A stretch of DNA of 13,864 bases from Candidatus Rifleibacteriota bacterium. GTDB taxonomy: Bacteria; Muiribacteriota; Ozemobacteria; Ozemobacterales; Ozemobacteraceae. How positions within the stretch are numbered: position 1 is the stretch's first letter; the number at the start of each line of letters is the position of its first letter. Positions 1-7,169 of this stretch are shown here, piece by piece. The notes beneath the pieces are model-generated. The model was not told the origin of the DNA. It saw only the letters and a program-made list of their open reading frames with translations, and ran no database searches. Location of the stretch: the NCBI GenBank assembly GCA_049325495.1, contig JBMOKV010000334.1, forward strand, positions 1-13,864. The letters run 5' to 3'. Made by a program: the position numbers and the translations under genes.

Positions 1-3000
1 GCAGCATTTGTGTTATTGAAAACCCTCCTTCAATTTCTATTGACAGTGTTACTGCTGTTCCGACTGTTGTTTACCTGAATCAAAAGAATCTGTCTGTCCA
101 GGTCGTGGTTCGCAACAGTGGACAGGCAACAGCAGTTCTTGAAGCCGCCAGCCTGACCTTTGATATAGGATCATATCAGCAAAGCCTTGTTTCACCGGCC
201 ATGCCTTATGAGCTTGCCGGTGGCGGTTCGACGGTGACCCTGGTATTCGATATTTCGGTCAATACCAGTTCTGCATCTGGATTGAGCACTTTCAATGCCA
301 ATGTAAAATGGTATGACAAAAACTGGGCAGATAATCAGGGCTATGTTAATGGCTCTACACCCAATGACAGCTGGACGATCAATTCGGTTGGTATTATTTT
401 GTCGTCGAACCTTACTTACAGCCCGACACAGGATGACTTCAACCGTAATCAGACAGTTTATATAAGATGTTACGGCCTGGCAGCCTTATCTTCATGGTAT
501 CGCGTAAGGCTTTACAATACTCAGATAGCACAGGCGGTTACTAGCCCTGGCGGTTGGATTATTCCGCCATCTCCCCAGCTTTCGGCCGACGGTGATGGTT
601 ATGTTGACCATCTGTATCCAATACCGGCAGCCGCTGTAATCGGAACCTGGAGCGTGGTCATCGATGATGGAACCAACACAGTTGCCGGTAACATGATGGG
701 TCTGCAATATTTCCGGGTCCAAAACCCCGGCGATCTGGTGGCTTCTTTGACTATCAGCCCTGCGTCTGTTTTTGTCGGCGAAAACTTTACGGTGACTATG
801 CTGGCATCGAATACGGTTTCGCAATCTTCGACCATCGATTACGCCTCGCCCTCGGAGCTGATCGATGCTTCAACTGAACCGAACTTTGACGGAAGCGCGA
901 CATTGATTTCAGGCCCCGACCCGGCAAGTATCACCGTAAAATCTCTCGATACCCAGACAATAAGTTATACTTATAGAGCCGACTCTGATACTGGGCTTGC
1001 GGGCGGTTACATGCTGACCGTTGCCCCAACATGGTATCTTGCCGGGTATGATCGAAATACTCTGGCAACCGTTTATTCTGGGAATGGGGTTTCAAACCCG
1101 ATTACGATTTACAGCCGTAAATTGCTGCTCTCGCCCGACTCTCTTGACTTTTTAACCCTCGAATGCGGCGAAACATTCAAAGTCGACGCAACGGTGCAGA
1201 ATATAGGAAATTACCAGCTTGACTATGTAAAATGGATAACCACCGATATGAACGGGCCGGCTGGTCTGAAAATCAGTAAGTCAAACCTGAGTATGAGCCC
1301 TGACCCGGTTAATGGGCTTGCCGGCCTATCAAACAAAGCTGCTTCGGCAACTCTTTTCGTGCCTTATAATAAAGAGGCGGGCAGTTACATTGCCACCATG
1401 TCGGTTTACAATGACCGCAATATGGATGACCTGCAGAGCATTGATGAGGCTTACGACCTTTTCAATGCCCGGGTTGTAGTTCCACCCTGCAAGAAGATTT
1501 TCGTTTCAGAGAGCGTCGTTGATCTTGGTGCCTGGCCAATCGGGCAGACCTCTTTGGGCCAGCCGGTAAACTATTTCAGCGGTGGTAACATTGCCCTTGA
1601 TGACGTCAAATTCATGCAGATTGTTGGCACCAATACGCCCGATTTCAATATTACATTGACACCAGACAATCCAGGCCCGATGGGGATTACTGACTCAGGA
1701 ATCGCCAGTGCGGTTGCCGTAGCGGTTGATACCGCCGGATTCTATATCGCCACCTGGACAATCTGGAATGATGCGGCCAATCCAGGGGTTGTCGATGCGG
1801 GAGAGGCCAGTGACACCTTTCAGGTGCATGTTCTGGTGGGAATAATGAATTTTGTTCTTGCACCGGCAACTCTGAATGCAGGCACGGTGGAACCATCTGC
1901 CCTTGAAATCTGCACCGGCCTTACTTTGACTAACGACGTGGCCGGCTTGCCATTGACCAAACTGAAGCTCGATGTTTTTGAGCTTTCAGACGGTGCTGGG
2001 CATGTTATCGCAACTGACAGCATTGCGATTTATCAGGTCGATAACCCAATTCCCGCAAAAGTCAACGCTGGTCAGGCCATACCCATAGATCTGGCTTTGT
2101 TTGTTCCTGCCGGAACTTTTGCGGGCACCTATTCTGGAACACAGTATGTCTATCACGACGACAACCTTAACGGCCAATGGGATGCCGGCGAATTCAGAGC
2201 TTCATTTATTCTTCAGTGCACGGTGCCACTGGTGCCCAAGGTTCAGGTAATGGTTGGAACGGTGGGCTTGGGCGGTATCGCGCCAAATACCTCGAAGATA
2301 GTAAGTTTTCCGTGTCGAAATACAGGTAACGTAGATTTGACCGGTCTGATGTGGGAAAAGGTTAAGCTGGTTTCAGGCGCCAATGAGATACCTGCGGTCA
2401 ACGCCAGTTTCCCGCCTTCAGAAATGTTTTCAGTTCCGATTGGCCAGTTTTTTACCCGGGAAATCGAAATCACGGTCCCCCCCGGGCAGCCCTTTGGTGT
2501 TTATAACAGTATTGCGCCGCAATTCTGGATATTTGCCGACATGCCGCCAACGGTTGATGGCGTCAGAACAGCAGGCGAGGCATCGTGCAGCTTTCAGGTA
2601 ACCTGTGAGGTCGGTGATCTTCTTGTTGATATCGTTGAAGCGAATCTTGCCGTAACCGGAGGTCCTAACAGTGTTTCAACTTCGGCGGCTTTCAATGCCC
2701 AGAATATCGGTTCACTGGCATTGGTAAACCTGAAGGCGACCGGCTCAGTTCTCGTTCCTTCGGTTGCTGGACCAATCAATATTGAAGCTTCTCAGAATTC
2801 GTTTACGCCGTCTTCGCTTGGCGGGGCAAATGCCGGTCAGAGCCGCAGCAGTGCCTGGTCGGTCAATATCCCGGCCAATGCTTCGGCAGGGGCCTACATC
2901 GGAACAGTAACAGTTTATGAAGACTCCAACTACAACAATGCCCAGGATGCAGGGGAAGCCTTTGCGCAAGTGCCGGTTCAATTGAACGTTCTGAGCCAGC

Positions 3001-4667
3001 CGGCAATAGATGTTAACCTGACACAGCTAGACCTTGGCTATGTGGGAAAAAATAACTCCAAGTCAGGGCAAATTATAATTACCAACGCCGGTAATGCAAT
3101 TGTAAATTCCCTTTATTTCTCAAAAGCTCCGTTGATCTTTGGAGCAAACAGCATTCCGGTTGGCAGTATCACCTTTGAAACTTTGCCAGCCATGCCATTG
3201 TCTCTCGATGTCGGTGACTCGGTTACTGCAACAGTAACTGTGACAATTGGTGCGGTTCAGGGTGCTTTTACCTATTCAGGTATCCAAAGAATGTTTGAAG
3301 ACGCTGACCTTGACTCAACCTGGGATGCCACTGAGGTCTCAGATACCTTCGAGCTGGTTATCAGTATTGGGGATAAGTTAATTTATGAAACCAATGCCAC
3401 AAATCCCACAGTTGCCTTTGGTAATCGCAATGTTAGTGCCACTTACAACCAGGCTGTAACCGTTTATGCCGGCTCTGCCGTGCCGTTGAACCGGGTAAAA
3501 TGGAAAGTTCTCGGGGCTTTTGAGGGCATCGACTATACTTTTCCGGTTGCCAGCCTGACTTTTACCCCTGCAACGGCCCAATTCATCGATGGTTTGAATA
3601 ATAGAGTTTTTCAGGCGGTTGCAGAGGTTGGCTTTGTTTCAGCAGGCTTATATGTTGCAACTGCCTCTTTCTACGATGATGACGACAATGATGGGGTAAT
3701 TGATGCAGCTGAAGCTTCCTGTTCATTTAATCTGTCTTTGACCGTTAACCCAGTATATGCTCTTGACCTGGTTCCGACTGTGGTTGATTTTGGCCAGGTT
3801 GCTCAGGGAGATGCGGTTAACAAGGAAATCATGTTCAGGAATAGCGGCAACATTCAATTGAGCAATTTCAGCTGGACCTTTTCAGCGCTGGACAAGGCTC
3901 CAGATCAAATTTTGCCGGCAAATTTGACCTATTCGCTAACCTTTACACCAGATCCTGTTTTGATGGGTGAATATGCCACCTCAACCGTTACCCTCTCGGT
4001 TGATGCGGCTCAACCTCTTGGCGTTTATGGCCCATCTGGTCCACAGACGATTCAGACCACCGATGGCACTGCTCCCACAGACTGGGCAAACTTTACCTGT
4101 GAAGTTGTAACCACCGGTGCTCCGACTTTCCAGCTTGCCTCTGGCAGCCTTTCTCAGGATATTGCCACCCTGTCTTTTTCGGCCACTGCACCTGACAACC
4201 GCTACTACATGTCTGCCTGGATCTGCCCAGGAACCGGTTCGGCCAACATTTCCTTTGTTACCTACAACGAGTTTGGCGAAGCGGTTGGTACCGTATCGGC
4301 GCAGATTGATTCAACTGGAAATCTCACCAGTAGTGGTGCGCCAATGGCGGTTGCAGACTCGGGTATTCTCGACAAAGTTCCCTATGAGCACCCTGACCAC
4401 CCGGGTGAAGACTTCTATTATTATCGAGTTTTTGTGGCGTTTGATTACACCTACAGCCAGGTTACTGCCAGCAATACCAGAATTATTCTTGGTAATACCA
4501 GCAATCCCGATGCTCCAAAAAATCGGGTCTGGTTTGATGGTGTCCAGTTGGAGCGAAGACGCGATGTGAATCAGACGAAACCAAGTGCATTTCATTCGAT
4601 CAGAACCATTTATTCGCCAACGCCGAAACAGACGATAACCGGAGAGGATCGCTACAATGAATGGTAA
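1..4667 (+). CDS. Giant secreted cell-surface repeat protein, 5'-truncated. The reading frame is open from base 3, and the GTG at 105 is only the first in-window start. It carries about 8 tandem ~127-aa Ig-like/CARDB-like beta-sandwich modules with NxGN and DxNxNGxxDAGEAS (Ca-binding-like) motifs, followed by a C-terminal CBM-like jelly-roll domain (aa 1342-1520 of the ORF, nt 4128-4664).
   Basis: The frame stays open to the left edge (..SICVIENPPSISIDSVTAVPTVVYLNQKNLSVQVVVRNSGQ..). The ORF is 4.5 kb with uniform Thr/Ser/Asn/Gly/Val-rich, Lys/Arg-poor composition typical of extracellular beta-rich proteins. The 'DAGEAS'-type motif recurs at a regular ~127-aa period (module ends at ORF aa 447, 564, 693, 823, 948, 1074, 1200 and ~1322). 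The C-terminal domain ends in 'VWFDGVQLE', reminiscent of the CBM4/9-type terminal strand. The stop overlaps the next start. Confidence 0.85.
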   Translation, partial: SICVIENPPSISIDSVTAVPTVVYLNQKNLSVQVVVRNSGQATAVLEAASLTFDIGSYQQSLVSPAMPYELAGGGSTVTLVFDISVNTSSASGLSTFNANVKWYDKNWADNQGYVNGSTPNDSWTINSVGIILSSNLTYSPTQDDFNRNQTVYIRCYGLAALSSWYRVRLYNTQIAQAVTSPGGWIIPPSPQLSADGDGYVDHLYPIPAAAVIGTWSVVIDDGTNTVAGNMMGLQYFRVQNPGDLVASLTISPASVFVGENFTVTMLASNTVSQSSTIDYASPSELIDASTEPNFDGSATLISGPDPASITVKSLDTQTISYTYRADSDTGLAGGYMLTVAPTWYLAGYDRNTLATVYSGNGVSNPITIYSRKLLLSPDSLDFLTLECGETFKVDATVQNIGNYQLDYVKWITTDMNGPAGLKISKSNLSMSPDPVNGLAGLSNKAASATLFVPYNKEAGSYIATMSVYNDRNMDDLQSIDEAYDLFNARVVVPPCKKIFVSESVVDLGAWPIGQTSLGQPVNYFSGGNIALDDVKFMQIVGTNTPDFNITLTPDNPGPMGITDSGIASAVAVAVDTAGFYIATWTIWNDAANPGVVDAGEASDTFQVHVLVGIMNFVLAPATLNAGTVEPSALEICTGLTLTNDVAGLPLTKLKLDVFELSDGAGHVIATDSIAIYQVDNPIPAKVNAGQAIPIDLALFVPAGTFAGTYSGTQYVYHDDNLNGQWDAGEFRASFILQCTVPLVPKVQVMVGTVGLGGIAPNTSKIVSFPCRNTGNVDLTGLMWEKVKLVSGANEIPAVNASFPPSEMFSVPIGQFFTREIEITVPPGQPFGVYNSIAPQFWIFADMPPTVDGVRTAGEASCSFQVTCEVGDLLVDIVEANLAVTGGPNSVSTSAAFNAQNIGSLALVNLKATGSVLVPSVAGPINIEASQNSFTPSSLGGANAGQSRSSAWSVNIPANASAGAYIGTVTVYEDSNYNNAQDAGEAFAQVPVQLNVLSQPAIDVNLTQLDLGYVGKNNSKSGQIIITNAGNAIVNSLYFSKAPLIFGANSIPVGSITFETLPAMPLSLDVGDSVTATVTVTIGAVQGAFTYSGIQRMFEDADLDSTWDATEVSDTFELVISIGDKLIYETNATNPTVAFGNRNVSATYNQAVTVYAGSAVPLNRVKWKVLGAFEGIDYTFPVASLTFTPATAQFIDGLNNRVFQAVAEVGFVSAGLYVATASFYDDDDNDGVIDAAEASCSFNLSLTVNPVYALDLVPTVVDFGQVAQGDAVNKEIMFRNSGNIQLSNFSWTFSALDKAPDQILPANLTYSLTFTPDPVLMGEYATSTVTLSVDAAQPLGVYGPSGPQTIQTTDGTAPTDWANFTCEVVTTGAPTFQLASGSLSQDIATLSFSATAPDNRYYMSAWICPGTGSANISFVTYNEFGEAVGTVSAQIDSTGNLTSSGAPMAVADSGILDKVPYEHPDHPGEDFYYYRVFVAFDYTYSQVTASNTRIILGNTSNPDAPKNRVWFDGVQLERRRDVNQTKPSAFHSIRTIYSPTPKQTITGEDRYNEW

Positions 4668-5307
4668 AATTAATTCAAATAAAAATTTGATTGTTCTGCT
4701 GGCAACGTTTCTTGTTGTTTTTTTCATGGTAGATGGGGCTATTGCCAAGAAGAAACCGCCTAAGGTTAAAAAGCCAAAACCTTCCGAGCTTGAGAAGAAT
4801 CAGGTGTATCAGGATATTCCGCTTAAAACGTTTTCGGCCATTGCGCCGGATAATGCCTATATTCTTTCAGGTTGGATCTGCCCTGGCAGTGGCAGCGCAA
4901 GACTTGCGCTGGTTACCTACAAGGGTGGCGGCAAAATTGAGGATTCGGCAGGGGTTGAAATCGCTTCGACCAGCGATTTAACCCTGCTGGGATTTGCCAA
5001 CGATGTGGGCATTGCCAATGCAAGAGGGTTCAATCATCCCGGTTACCCTGGTGCCGGTTTTCGTTATTTCAGGGTGTTTGCCCGGTTCAATTTCACTTCC
5101 GTTCCATCTATCAAAGCTGCTAGAATAATACTGCAGAACACCAGCAATGAAACTGCTTCATGTTCCGTGTGGTTTGATGGTATAAAATTAGAGAAAGCTC
5201 TGAAACCCGATCAGGAATATCCGACCAGTTACCATTCAATTGGTAATCTGTTGTCATCAGAATTCGTTGACACTCTTGAAGGAGGTCCGCAGTATTATGA
5301 ATGGTGA
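4657..5307 (+). CDS. Small secreted protein (216 aa) that is a stand-alone paralog of the giant protein's C-terminal CBM-like domain. It has an N-terminal signal peptide (h-region LIVLLATFLVVFFMV, probable cleavage after AIA) and a Lys/Pro-rich linker.
   Basis: It is about 40% identical by eye to aa 1342-1520 of the upstream ORF. Examples: SAIAPDNAYILSGWICPGSGSA vs SATAPDNRYYMSAWICPGTGSA; FRYFRVFARF vs FYYYRVFVAF; RIILQNTSNE..VWFDGIKLEK vs RIILGNTSNP..VWFDGVQLER; C-terminus ..GGPQYYEW* vs ..GEDRYNEW*. There is a GGAGAGGA RBS 9 nt upstream. The ATG overlaps the upstream stop (ATGAATGGTAA). Confidence 0.8.
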   Translation: MNGKINSNKNLIVLLATFLVVFFMVDGAIAKKKPPKVKKPKPSELEKNQVYQDIPLKTFSAIAPDNAYILSGWICPGSGSARLALVTYKGGGKIEDSAGVEIASTSDLTLLGFANDVGIANARGFNHPGYPGAGFRYFRVFARFNFTSVPSIKAARIILQNTSNETASCSVWFDGIKLEKALKPDQEYPTSYHSIGNLLSSEFVDTLEGGPQYYEW

Positions 5308-5854
5308 ACTGCATTTAAACAACAGAAAAGGTGCTTTGATGCTTATGCTTCTGGTAGTGATTGTTATCGGCGGCATTGTTGCTCTGCGTATGCTTCCACA
5401 GGAAGACGTAATTGCCAAGCGCGAAAAAGAAGAAAACCTACACAAGAATCTGAGCCAGATACGTGAAGCATTTGACCTTAAATGGCAGGCCGACGAAAAC
5501 TGGACTCCTGATTTGACCAACAAAGCAGGAATCCGAGCTGCATTGCAGACTCTTGCCAATGAAGGATTCCTGCGGGAAGAGGATATCCTTGATCCGACAG
5601 TTCCAACTTATCTTTGGGACACCTCTGACATCTATTACTGGAAAGCTTCAACCAATATTGCTTCAAATGCCAGTTTTGAACTTGAAGATCCGTCAGACCC
5701 AACTTTGATTGCTTCGTGGACCAAGGCTCCGGATACCGAAGCAGCAACGGTAACACAATATCTTGATGACAATATTCTTGATGATTACCCGCATCAGAAC
5801 AAGCTTGGAGCCCCGCTTCAGGGCGGTGGAACCTCGCTGATGATTGTTAAATGA
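5297..5854 (+). CDS. Small membrane-anchored protein (185 aa) with an N-terminus reminiscent of type IV pilin/pseudopilin: a short basic leader MNGELHLNNRKG followed by a ~21-aa hydrophobic helix ALMLMLLVVIVIGGIVAL. The remainder is a ~150-aa acidic extracytoplasmic domain.
   Basis: I chose the internal ATG at 5297 as the start rather than the ORF-track start at 5240. A GGAGG RBS sits 11 nt upstream. The ATG is embedded in the same ATGAATGGTGA stop/start overlap seen at 4657. Confidence 0.65.
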   Translation: MNGELHLNNRKGALMLMLLVVIVIGGIVALRMLPQEDVIAKREKEENLHKNLSQIREAFDLKWQADENWTPDLTNKAGIRAALQTLANEGFLREEDILDPTVPTYLWDTSDIYYWKASTNIASNASFELEDPSDPTLIASWTKAPDTEAATVTQYLDDNILDDYPHQNKLGAPLQGGGTSLMIVK

Positions 5855-5872
5855 ATATTTAAAACAGCCTTT

Positions 5873-7024
5873 TTACGGCTTCTGCATGCTTTCGAATATT
5901 TTGCCGGCCCAATCGCGGGCAATCTTGCTGCCTTCATTCCCCCAGAAATGTACGCCATCGCCGCCGTTATCGGGGTAGTGAGTGTGGGGGCGAGAATCAA
6001 TGAAACTGCCGTATTTTTCGGCTTCGGCTTTCAGATTTTCATACAACCTGTTCTGTTTCTCAGTGGGCTTTTTATCGGCCCGACCGTTTGGGGGGCCGAC
6101 CCAGACGATCTGGCAACCTGCTTTTTTGGCAATATCGCAGACCGATTTTACCTGCGATCTGATTGCTTCCGGTGAAGCGCCAATCATGTTCGCGCCAAGG
6201 GAAAAAACGATTATTCCAGGTTTGAAGTCTTTGATAAGTTTGTTTAGATTCGGGGTTGAGCGAGGAGTTCGCCAGTCGGCCGGCTGATCGATGCGGCTCT
6301 GCTCGTCTTTGGCAAAATACCCTGATTTCCCAACAGTTTCATTGAGATACCATGATGGTGATGAGCCTGAAACCCCAACGGTCGTGATCGCCGCGCCGGT
6401 GCTGCGCATAAGATCATCCATGGCTTTACCGTAAATTCCACAGGTGTGAGAATCGCCGATATGCAGAACTCTGCTTTCGGGGGTAATCAGTGGCCCGCCG
6501 GACCTGCTGGAATTTTCATTGCCGGTAACTGAAGCGGAAGGAGCTGGGTTAGTCTCTGAGCTGCTCATTGTTTCATCGGTTTCTGAGGTGTTTGGGGTGT
6601 CGCTTACTATCTGCCTGTCGGCTTTTTCAGATTTTGCCGGCGCAAGTCTGAGATTCCAGCCGACCAGAATAAGATCGGGATTTTTTAGAAGAGACGGGTA
6701 GCGGTCAAGGTTCCATGAGACCAGGTCACGCCATCGACCGGCATCGCCAAGAAATTTTCGTGCAATGCCTGAAAGGGTGTTGCCTTTGACCACCAGGTAG
6801 TCGCCGGATGAGGATGAAGAACCTTCATTCTCATTGGATGAGTCGGTTATAAGGTCAGATATTTCATCTGAAATATCATCGATTTCTTCAATCAACGAAT
6901 CGGTACCATCTATAGAAAATTTGATTTCGACTTCTTCTTCGGTAAAGGGGTTTTGGGCAAACCCCGGATCAGAAGAAACTATTGATGCCATTAAAATCAG
7001 CGGAATCATCTTTCGAGCTTTCAT
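5873..7024 (-). CDS. Secreted LysM-domain + SGNH/GDSL-family hydrolase (383 aa). Likely a cell-wall (peptidoglycan or glycan) esterase/deacetylase-type enzyme.
   Basis: The start is set at the internal Met (MKARKMIPLILMASIVSS..), which has an AGGAGGG RBS 5 nt upstream and a signal-peptide-like N-terminus. An acidic Ser/Asp/Glu linker follows. The LysM motif is 'DYLVVKGNTLSGIARKF..LVSWN..LILVGWNLRL'. The SGNH blocks are all present: I 'HIGDSHTCG', II 'GVSGSSPSW', III 'FSLGANM', V 'DGVHFW'. Confidence 0.8.
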   Translation of the reverse strand: MKARKMIPLILMASIVSSDPGFAQNPFTEEEVEIKFSIDGTDSLIEEIDDISDEISDLITDSSNENEGSSSSSGDYLVVKGNTLSGIARKFLGDAGRWRDLVSWNLDRYPSLLKNPDLILVGWNLRLAPAKSEKADRQIVSDTPNTSETDETMSSSETNPAPSASVTGNENSSRSGGPLITPESRVLHIGDSHTCGIYGKAMDDLMRSTGAAITTVGVSGSSPSWYLNETVGKSGYFAKDEQSRIDQPADWRTPRSTPNLNKLIKDFKPGIIVFSLGANMIGASPEAIRSQVKSVCDIAKKAGCQIVWVGPPNGRADKKPTEKQNRLYENLKAEAEKYGSFIDSRPHTHYPDNGGDGVHFWGNEGSKIARDWAGKIFESMQKP

Positions 7025-7104
7025 TTTCCCTCCTGTACGCCATGGCGGGTAATCAAACCACATTTATAATACCAGAAAACCGGAAAAAGGTTTTAATTTG
7101 TTGA

Positions 7105-7133
7105 TTGTATTAAATCCTGAGGTCTTCTATAAT
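7105..7133 (+). promoter_or_regulatory. Putative sigma70-type promoter for the MVP-like gene: -35 TTGTAT, 17-nt spacer, -10 TATAAT.
   Basis: The hexamers were read directly from the sequence, with a perfect -10 and 17-nt spacing. It lies ~37 nt upstream of the RBS/ATG at 7170. Confidence 0.5.
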
Positions 7134-7169
7134 TTTATCAGGATGATTACTTTAAGAGGAGACAGGAAG

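Follow-up and report, generated by a model that had tools for sequence, protein, structure and literature searches.

Why does the C-terminal domain of a giant surface protein recur as a small secreted protein in the very next gene, and why do both genes end in the same stop/start overlap? This question is raised by a contig of a Candidatus Rifleibacteriota bacterium (JBMOKV010000334.1, assembly GCA_049325495.1), of which positions 1 to 13,864 of the forward strand were analyzed; this whole stretch of 13,864 nucleotides is called the window below. An earlier note, made from the letters alone, had pointed to three overlapping genes, encoding the giant protein, the free copy of its domain (open reading frame (ORF) 216, ORF216) and a third product (ORF185). 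We find that the domain belongs to an undescribed C-terminal family restricted to one phylum and that the shared overlap is maintained by selection acting on two reading frames. Tentatively, we also propose that the domain docks its proteins onto the pilin-like product of ORF185.

Two copies of one domain in three overlapping genes

The three-gene unit comprises the following features.

3-4667, +: giant surface-protein gene, 1,554 codons in the window, encoding immunoglobulin (Ig)-like repeats and then the C-terminal domain
4131-4553, +: predicted jelly-roll body of the giant's copy, ending in VWFDGVQLE and matching ORF216 by BLASTP at E=2e-42
4554-4664, +: C-terminal tail of the giant, 37 residues, RRRDVNQTKPSAFHSIRTIYSPTPKQTITGEDRYNEW-COOH, a conserved motif
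4641-4647, +: Shine-Dalgarno-like GGAGAGG as read in the sequence, 9 nucleotides 5' of the ORF216 start and inside the Gly-Glu-Asp codons of the giant's tail
4657-4667, +: junction 1, ATGAATGGTAA, where ...N-E-W-stop of the giant overlaps the M-N-G start of ORF216
4657-5307, +: ORF216, 216 residues, the stand-alone copy, made up of a signal-peptide-like N-terminus (4657-4746), a Lys/Pro-rich linker KKKPPKVKKPKP (4747-4782), a predicted jelly-roll body (4786-5193) and a tail (5194-5304)
5280-5286, +: Shine-Dalgarno-like AGGAGGT as read in the sequence, 10 nucleotides 5' of the ORF185 start and inside the Glu-Gly-Gly codons of the ORF216 tail
5297-5307, +: junction 2, ATGAATGGTGA, shared by the ...Y-E-W-stop of ORF216 and the M-N-G start of ORF185
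5297-5854, +: ORF185, the pilin-like gene, with a leader MNGELHLNNRKG ending in Gly, a 21-residue hydrophobic tract ALMLMLLVVIVIGGIVALRML and then Pro at +22

A BLASTP alignment of the giant's last 221 residues with ORF216 confirmed that the giant's C-terminus and the mature part of ORF216 are paralogs. The alignment covered 178 residues with 41% identity, 57% positives and 5 gap positions (E=2e-42), and it joined residues 1377-1554 of the giant's open frame (4131-4664) to residues 44-216 of ORF216 (4786-5304). This relationship had been claimed in the earlier note, and all the motifs quoted there in its favor were found: WICPGxGSA, F(R/Y)Y(F/Y)RVF, RIIL(Q/G)NTSN, VWFDG(I/V)(K/Q)LE and the terminal Y(N/Y)EW-stop. 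The layout described there was borne out as well: three coupled genes are joined by two identical overlap junctions, and the second gene encodes a free copy preceded by a signal-peptide-like N-terminus.

The frame of the giant is open from position 3, and therefore the gene is truncated at its 5' end by the end of the contig. Full-length orthologs range from 3,187 residues (locus L005 of the genome scan described below) to 3,411 residues. The ortholog at L005 shares 52% identity with the window's giant over 1,572 residues, and its N-terminus resembles a signal peptide. In Pfam scans, the giant proteins showed only Ig-like modules, with matches in the window's giant to HYDIN/VesB-like Ig (E=2e-11) and NPCBM_assoc (E=7e-9), while an NCBIfam scan gave a weak match to choice-of-anchor D. 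The giants are paralogous to each other over their whole length.

The N-terminus of ORF216 reads MNGKINSNKN-LIVLLATFLVVFFMV-DGAIA/KKK, with the stroke at the A-x-A site, and it resembles a Sec signal peptide, as judged by inspection and by its conservation in 13 orthologs. These orthologs are 51-100% identical to ORF216, and all of them are 206-218 residues long. All family-wide conserved residues and the tail are kept in ORF216. In comparison with the orthologous locus L006, the ratio of nonsynonymous to synonymous substitution rates (dN/dS) was lowest in the giant's C-terminal domain (0.085), followed by ORF216 (0.14) and ORF185 (0.25); thus, all three are real genes under purifying selection. 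A Lys/Pro-rich linker directly follows the signal peptide in stand-alone copies (KKKPPKVKKPKP in the window and KPKPPKPPKPPKPPKP at L016, ~9900-9990) and resembles rigid proline-rich spacers, for example that of TonB.

Both overlaps, of ORF216 on the giant gene and of ORF185 on ORF216, are 11 nucleotides long. The pattern ATGAATGGTRA occurs twice in the window, each time as a stop/start overlap; in 200 shuffles of the window, its mean count was 0.01, and none of the 200 contained two matches. The ending ...G-x3-Y-[YFS..]-E-W-stop closes nearly every domain-bearing ORF of the 67 genome-scan loci. At L001-L004, the giant lies on the opposite strand and has no overlapping downstream gene. The giant there, that of L001 for example, nevertheless ends in KYYEW-stop, encoded by TAC GAA TGG TAA without any ATG; therefore, the terminus is conserved at the protein level. 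At further non-overlapping loci, the codon preceding GAA is TTC, TCG, ACA or similar, whereas at loci with an overlapping gene it ends in AT (TAT, AAT or CAT). In the other frame, E-W-stop forces M-N-G, or M-S-G where Glu is encoded by GAG. Since the two copies share only ~41% of their residues and yet have identical junctions, the identity of the junctions must have been kept by dual-frame selection. The shared junction is thus not a fossil of the duplication event, and the same selection on overlapping frames maintains the ATG and the MNG or MSG N-termini forced by it.

As for the history of the duplication, the pilin-like gene comes immediately after the giant, via ATGAATGGTAA or ATGAGTGGTAA, at L014, L020, L022, L023, L025, L026, L027 and L028; the ATGAATGGTAA overlap joins the two genes at L014, L020, L022, L023 and L028. 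The order giant, stand-alone copy, pilin-like gene was found in the window, at L005, at L006 and at L011/L007. Given the loci where the giant stands directly before the pilin-like gene with the same junction, an insertion of 'domain + junction' is a sensible history. To this extent, the proposal of the earlier note that domain and junction had been duplicated as one unit holds, but the junction is no passive relic of that event, as the TAC, TTC and TCG codons at non-overlapping loci indicate. In neighbor-joining (NJ) trees, the stand-alone clade (window, L006, L007, L005, L001 and L008) was monophyletic in 300 of 300 bootstraps; its union with the clade of the neighboring giants' domains was recovered in 27%. 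The identity of ORF216 to several giant clades was similar (36-42%). Descent of ORF216 from the neighboring giant's own domain is thereby only weakly supported. On these sequences, the simplest reading would be that 'domain + junction' was inserted once, long ago, between the giant gene and the pilin-like gene.

A tandem duplication reaching from the domain across the junction into the 5' part of the pilin-like gene was also considered as a source of the ORF216 signal peptide, which would then derive from the pilin-like N-terminal helix. It was not supported: without the forced MNG, the score of a local alignment between the two N-termini was reached by 203 of 2,000 block-preserving shuffles. 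Further stand-alone forms stand elsewhere in the tree, at L016 (with a KPKPPKPP... linker), L036 and L039. Since such forms exist in several lineages, free copies are recurrent in the phylum and not the rarity that the earlier note had taken them for. In one Riflebacteria metagenome-assembled genome (MAG), two giant genes of ~2,300 residues each lie in tandem (L055, 1319-8236 and 8900-15778), both with the C-terminal domain; hence, whole-gene tandem duplication also occurs in the giant family.

A C-terminal domain family and its pilin-like neighbor

To assess how the domain is distributed, 1.84 billion representative proteins were searched exhaustively with a HMMER profile, and one genome per species was examined in a genome scan. 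The family profile matches residues 1373-1554 of the window's giant at E=1.2e-76. The profile search returned only 72 clusters, in which nearly all matches end at the last residue or no more than one residue before it; a word-indexed homolog search with the giant's C-terminus, in comparison, had returned one protein only. Full-length proteins with the domain are either giants of ~2,000-3,800 residues with Ig repeats or small proteins of ~200-220 residues, several of which have clear signal peptides (P0043, P0046, P0052, P0064 and P0076). The 67 loci of the genome scan belong nearly all to MAGs labeled Rifleibacteriota, Riflebacteria or Ozemobacteraceae or to 'uncultured bacterium' bins. A few bins are labeled otherwise, and the match at L072 (Bacillota) is marginal and partial. 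Several MAGs contain 3-4 domain loci each.

No Pfam match was obtained for nine domain sequences, that is, both window copies and seven diverse relatives (E <= 0.1 for ORF216 and E <= 5 for the others), and among these nine there was no match to CBM4_9/CBM-cenC (PF02018) or to related hidden Markov models (HMMs) of carbohydrate-binding modules (CBMs). NCBIfam gave no match at E <= 0.1 for ORF216 or across the giant's C-terminal domain, and Por_Secre_tail/TIGR04183 was absent from the Pfam and NCBIfam scans. The domain profile yielded nothing meaningful among PDB sequences, and Foldseek with the domain yielded nothing at E <= 0.001 (TM <= 0.37). No description of the family was found in the literature on Riflebacteria pili or giant proteins.

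AlphaFold2 (AF2), run for ORF216 on an alignment of 15 sequences, gave a model (predicted local distance difference test (pLDDT) 81.7, predicted template-modeling score (pTM) 0.82) with a nine-strand sandwich at model residues 6-137. The predicted fold is a CBM-like jelly-roll. The earlier note had suggested a CBM4/9-like jelly-roll lectin; the jelly-roll agrees with the model, but membership in a specific CBM family is unsupported, as the Pfam and Foldseek results show. In the model, the tail after the sandwich has a pLDDT below 50. In the alignment of 69 sequences, however, the tail is conserved as strongly as the folded body (2.29 vs 2.24 bits per column), with the motif Q-x2-P-[TS]...S-P...G-x3-Y-x-E-W kept throughout. 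A conserved tail of such low predicted confidence is typical of a segment that becomes ordered on a partner.

Two other ideas on the domain were discarded. A catalytic or thioester role of the Cys in WICPG was rejected because other members have N, S or G at this position, and an outer-membrane beta-barrel or autotransporter-like domain, an idea that came from the terminal Y-x-W, was rejected because AF2 gave a confident sandwich.

Based on its sequences, the domain is an undescribed, phylum-restricted C-terminal family composed of a jelly-roll of ~135 residues and a tail of ~37 residues ending in ...G-x3-Y-x-E-W-COOH. In addition, the family profile matches the last VWFDGxxLE strand and the start of the tail at internal sites of some giants (L001, residues 237-255; L005, residues 1053-1088; L062, residues 1016-1058), and N-termini of giants read like CBM starts (LNQLLNSDFTTDYSGW). 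It is therefore probable that the giants carry additional related jelly-roll modules.

ORF185 was analyzed in the same way. A class 3 signal peptide consists of a short hydrophilic leader ending in Gly or Ala and a hydrophobic tract of ~21 residues (PMC9934059), and the leader and tract of ORF185 correspond to this definition. Gly-1, Gly+14 and Pro+22 are present, and Met takes the place of Glu+5. Among 20 aligned homologs, position +5 is Met in nearly all and Glu in none. The ORF185 family profile aligned with Geobacter PilA-N (the geopilin in the PDB) in register, including the leader Gly and Pro22 (E=0.0045). ORF185 had no Pfam match, N_methyl included, and TIGR01710 (GspG) gave E=0.034 with 14.2 bits, which is below its cut-off of 88.85. 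AF2 predicted an N-terminal helix of ~57 residues (residues 9-65) followed by a poorly modeled head, and one homolog is named PulG by the Joint Genome Institute (JGI). The accepted pilins PilX and GspK, which are filament-tip subunits, likewise do not have Glu5 (PMC7541494). On these sequence features, we regard ORF185 as pilin-like and Glu5-less in the manner of PilX and GspK. Pilin-like genes flank the domain-bearing genes in the window and at 26 fetched loci, four of which are copies of one place; they stand downstream with overlap, downstream without overlap or upstream.

Possible roles of the domain

Based on the above results, we put forward the following reading as plausible but tentative: the domain is a docking module that attaches the giants and the free copy to a Glu5-less pilin-like partner. 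The module would be the docking or anchoring end of the giant rather than an adhesive head. It is probably not an adhesin's ligand-binding domain, as the earlier note had it, since it is strictly C-terminal, is present in every paralogous giant, has a tail as conserved as its body and is repeatedly linked to pilin-like genes, a type of gene that the earlier note had not recognized. The Sec-exported giant would be held through this module on the tip-type pilin-like product of the neighboring gene, and the tail would probably fold onto this partner. In the lineage of the window, the coding segment of the module would have been duplicated between the giant and pilin-like genes together with the Y/N-E-W-stop/ATG overlap, and the new copy would have gained a short linker rich in Lys and Pro, preceded by a signal peptide. 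This free copy would bind the same site of the partner as an adaptor, a spacer or a competitor setting the number of giants mounted. The 11-nucleotide overlaps with their internal Shine-Dalgarno sequences would couple the translation of the three products. It should be noted that we infer the contact between the domain and the pilin-like protein, a place in a filament and what the free copy does, whereas the data show the paralogy, the junctions, the fold class, the strictly C-terminal position, the conserved terminus, the gene linkage and the purifying selection. A bolder version, which we consider improbable, takes the jelly-roll, the Y-x-E-W-COOH tail and the Glu5-less pilin-like protein together as an undescribed way of mounting adhesins of 2,000-3,800 residues on a type IV-filament-like structure of a diderm Terrabacteria phylum, in which the tail would complete or clamp the subunit and ORF216-type proteins would be adaptors or caps for the same site.

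The closest analogue of such an arrangement is found at the tip of the type IVa pilus, where PilY1 occurs with PilX, a minor pilin lacking Glu5, and likewise in the tip pseudopilin GspK of the type II secretion system with its substrates; the window genes are not members of these families. As in PilY1/PilX, the gene of a large Sec-exported protein, conserved in its C-terminal domain but variable toward the N-terminus, adjoins a Glu5-less pilin-like gene. The C-terminal 'PilY1 domain' is a beta-propeller, whereas the giant ends in a predicted jelly-roll and a tail without sequence relationship to it, and the Pfam scans of the giants gave no match to the PilY1 or Neisseria_PilC domain. Furthermore, a single pilin-like gene stands here in place of FimU, PilV, PilW and PilX, the giants are larger by a factor of 2-3, pilus machinery is absent from the surroundings examined, and the interaction is putative.

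A jelly-roll combined with a pilin moiety has a parallel in Streptococcus sanguinis PilC, in which a lectin module is grafted on a pilin within a tip-located adhesive complex (PMC9934059). PilC, however, is one polypeptide with the pilin at its N-terminus, while ORF216 and ORF185 are separate products of overlapping genes, and glycan binding by ORF216 is putative. Compared with the jelly-rolls of CBM4, CBM9, CBM16 and CBM22, the domain differs in having no sequence-family membership and no significant Foldseek match, and also in its additional conserved tail of 37 residues and its restriction to the extreme C-terminus. The C-terminal domain of the type IX secretion system (T9SS; Por_Secre_tail) shares with it a beta-sandwich, a location at the extreme C-terminus only, large secreted surface proteins as carriers and several copies per genome. 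The differences are that no HMM match was found, that the domain has ~135 residues plus the tail as against ~80-100, that its cargo is one giant family in another phylum and that no T9SS genes were seen.

Several observations weigh against docking on a pilin-like partner. Fewer than half of the loci that encode the domain have an adjoining pilin-like gene, and no machinery of a type IV pilus or type II secretion system, including prepilin peptidase, assembly ATPase and platform genes, was seen in the 10-kb flanks examined. The fixed C-terminal position may in part reflect shared ancestry instead of a positional requirement, because the giants are paralogous over their whole length. The predicted CBM-like fold would fit a lectin equally well. 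As a lectin, the domain could bind the giant to an external glycan or to the cell's own envelope polysaccharide, as in S-layer anchoring; the free copy would be a soluble competitor, a decoy or a matrix cross-linker, and the pilin-like linkage would be incidental. We consider this somewhat less likely than docking. A generic jelly-roll does not imply sugar binding, and neither Pfam (no CBM match in the nine sequences) nor Foldseek (nothing at E <= 0.001, TM <= 0.37) connects the domain to a CBM family. A lectin also leaves unexplained why the module is always last, why conservation of the tail and of the terminal E-W matches that of the fold and why the pairing with pilin-like genes recurs.

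The strictly terminal position in nearly all of the 72 clusters, the near-invariant terminal aromatic residue and the several module-bearing proteins per genome would also be expected if the module were a C-terminal signal for sorting or secretion peculiar to this lineage, with a function like that of the T9SS C-terminal domain, and were recognized and perhaps cleaved by an export or attachment machinery of the envelope. The element recognized would then be Y-x-E-W-COOH, comparable to the Y-x-F ends of outer-membrane proteins that are read by PDZ domains or BamA. In this pathway, the free copy would act either as a small cargo or in regulation. Choice-of-anchor D, weakly matched here, is typical of proteins with C-terminal sorting domains. 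In addition, Rifleibacteriota have been placed among the diderm Terrabacteria with OmpM (10.1101/2021.05.31.446380), so the giant must cross an outer membrane. Nevertheless, we regard a sorting signal as unlikely: unlike that of true sorting tags, the cargo is not diverse but consists of one paralogous giant family and domain-only proteins, no sorting-signal model (Por_Secre_tail included) was matched, the module is larger than the T9SS C-terminal domain and differs from it in topology, and no candidate machinery lies nearby. Both the lectin and the sorting-signal readings are compatible with docking. Far less probable than any of these is that ORF216 is a neutral or decaying by-product of a tandem duplication, with the junction as a mere remnant. 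Tandem duplications are common in repetitive giant genes, but ORF216 has orthologs in at least 12 other clusters with 51-92% identity and the same length, its dN/dS is 0.14, and all family-invariant residues are kept. The ORF216 gene is also old, since the copies now share only 41% identity and all 300 bootstraps recover the stand-alone clade as monophyletic. A functionless duplicate is thus effectively refuted by these conservation data.

Surroundings of the unit and significance of the family

Downstream of the three-gene unit, the window contains the following genes.

5873-7063, -: secreted LysM-GDSL protein, convergent to the unit, with LysM (E=7e-4), an acidic/Ser-rich linker and an SGNH/GDSL hydrolase (E=1e-5)
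7098-9629, +: bacterial major vault protein (MVP)-like protein of 843 residues, with Pfam MVP_shoulder (E=1.8e-28), Vault_3 (E=4.3e-7) and a coiled-coil C-terminus
9991-10992, - and 11008-12042, -: tandem paralogous genes of the GalT/HIT family, resembling galactose-1-phosphate uridylyltransferase
13036-13434, -: ORF of 132 residues, almost entirely Asp and Glu
13026-13406, opposite strand to the preceding ORF: Leu/Arg-rich ORF, probably spurious

A GalT-like gene is also a neighbor at L005. Between it and the pilin-like gene of that locus (11540-19457) lie genes for an integrase and a small terminase, together with DUF927 and ORF6N genes; this mobile element stands in place of the LysM-GDSL and MVP-like genes of the window. 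On the 5' side of giant genes, a gene of 160-190 codons was found (L005, 1-325; L001, 9283-9768, -; L014, 980-1534). The products at L005 and L001 have a hydrophobic, transmembrane-like C-terminal segment, and their mutual similarity is weak (E=3.5e-5); neither had a meaningful Pfam match.

The domain family described here, absent from Pfam and NCBIfam, marks giant surface proteins across a whole uncultured phylum and can be recognized by VWFDGxxLE, followed after ~35 residues by Y-x-E-W-COOH. Its genes also offer a clean case of overlapping-frame constraint, in which the conserved C-terminal Tyr/Asn-Glu-Trp-stop provides the following gene with its start codon and with three fixed N-terminal residues (MNG or MSG) and the codon switches from TAT to TAC where no gene follows. 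Since the host group is diderm with OmpM, export of the giant across the outer membrane is a real problem that the module might address. The recurrent pairing with a tip-type pilin-like gene thus offers a testable hypothesis for how a diderm Terrabacterium may display proteins of several thousand residues.

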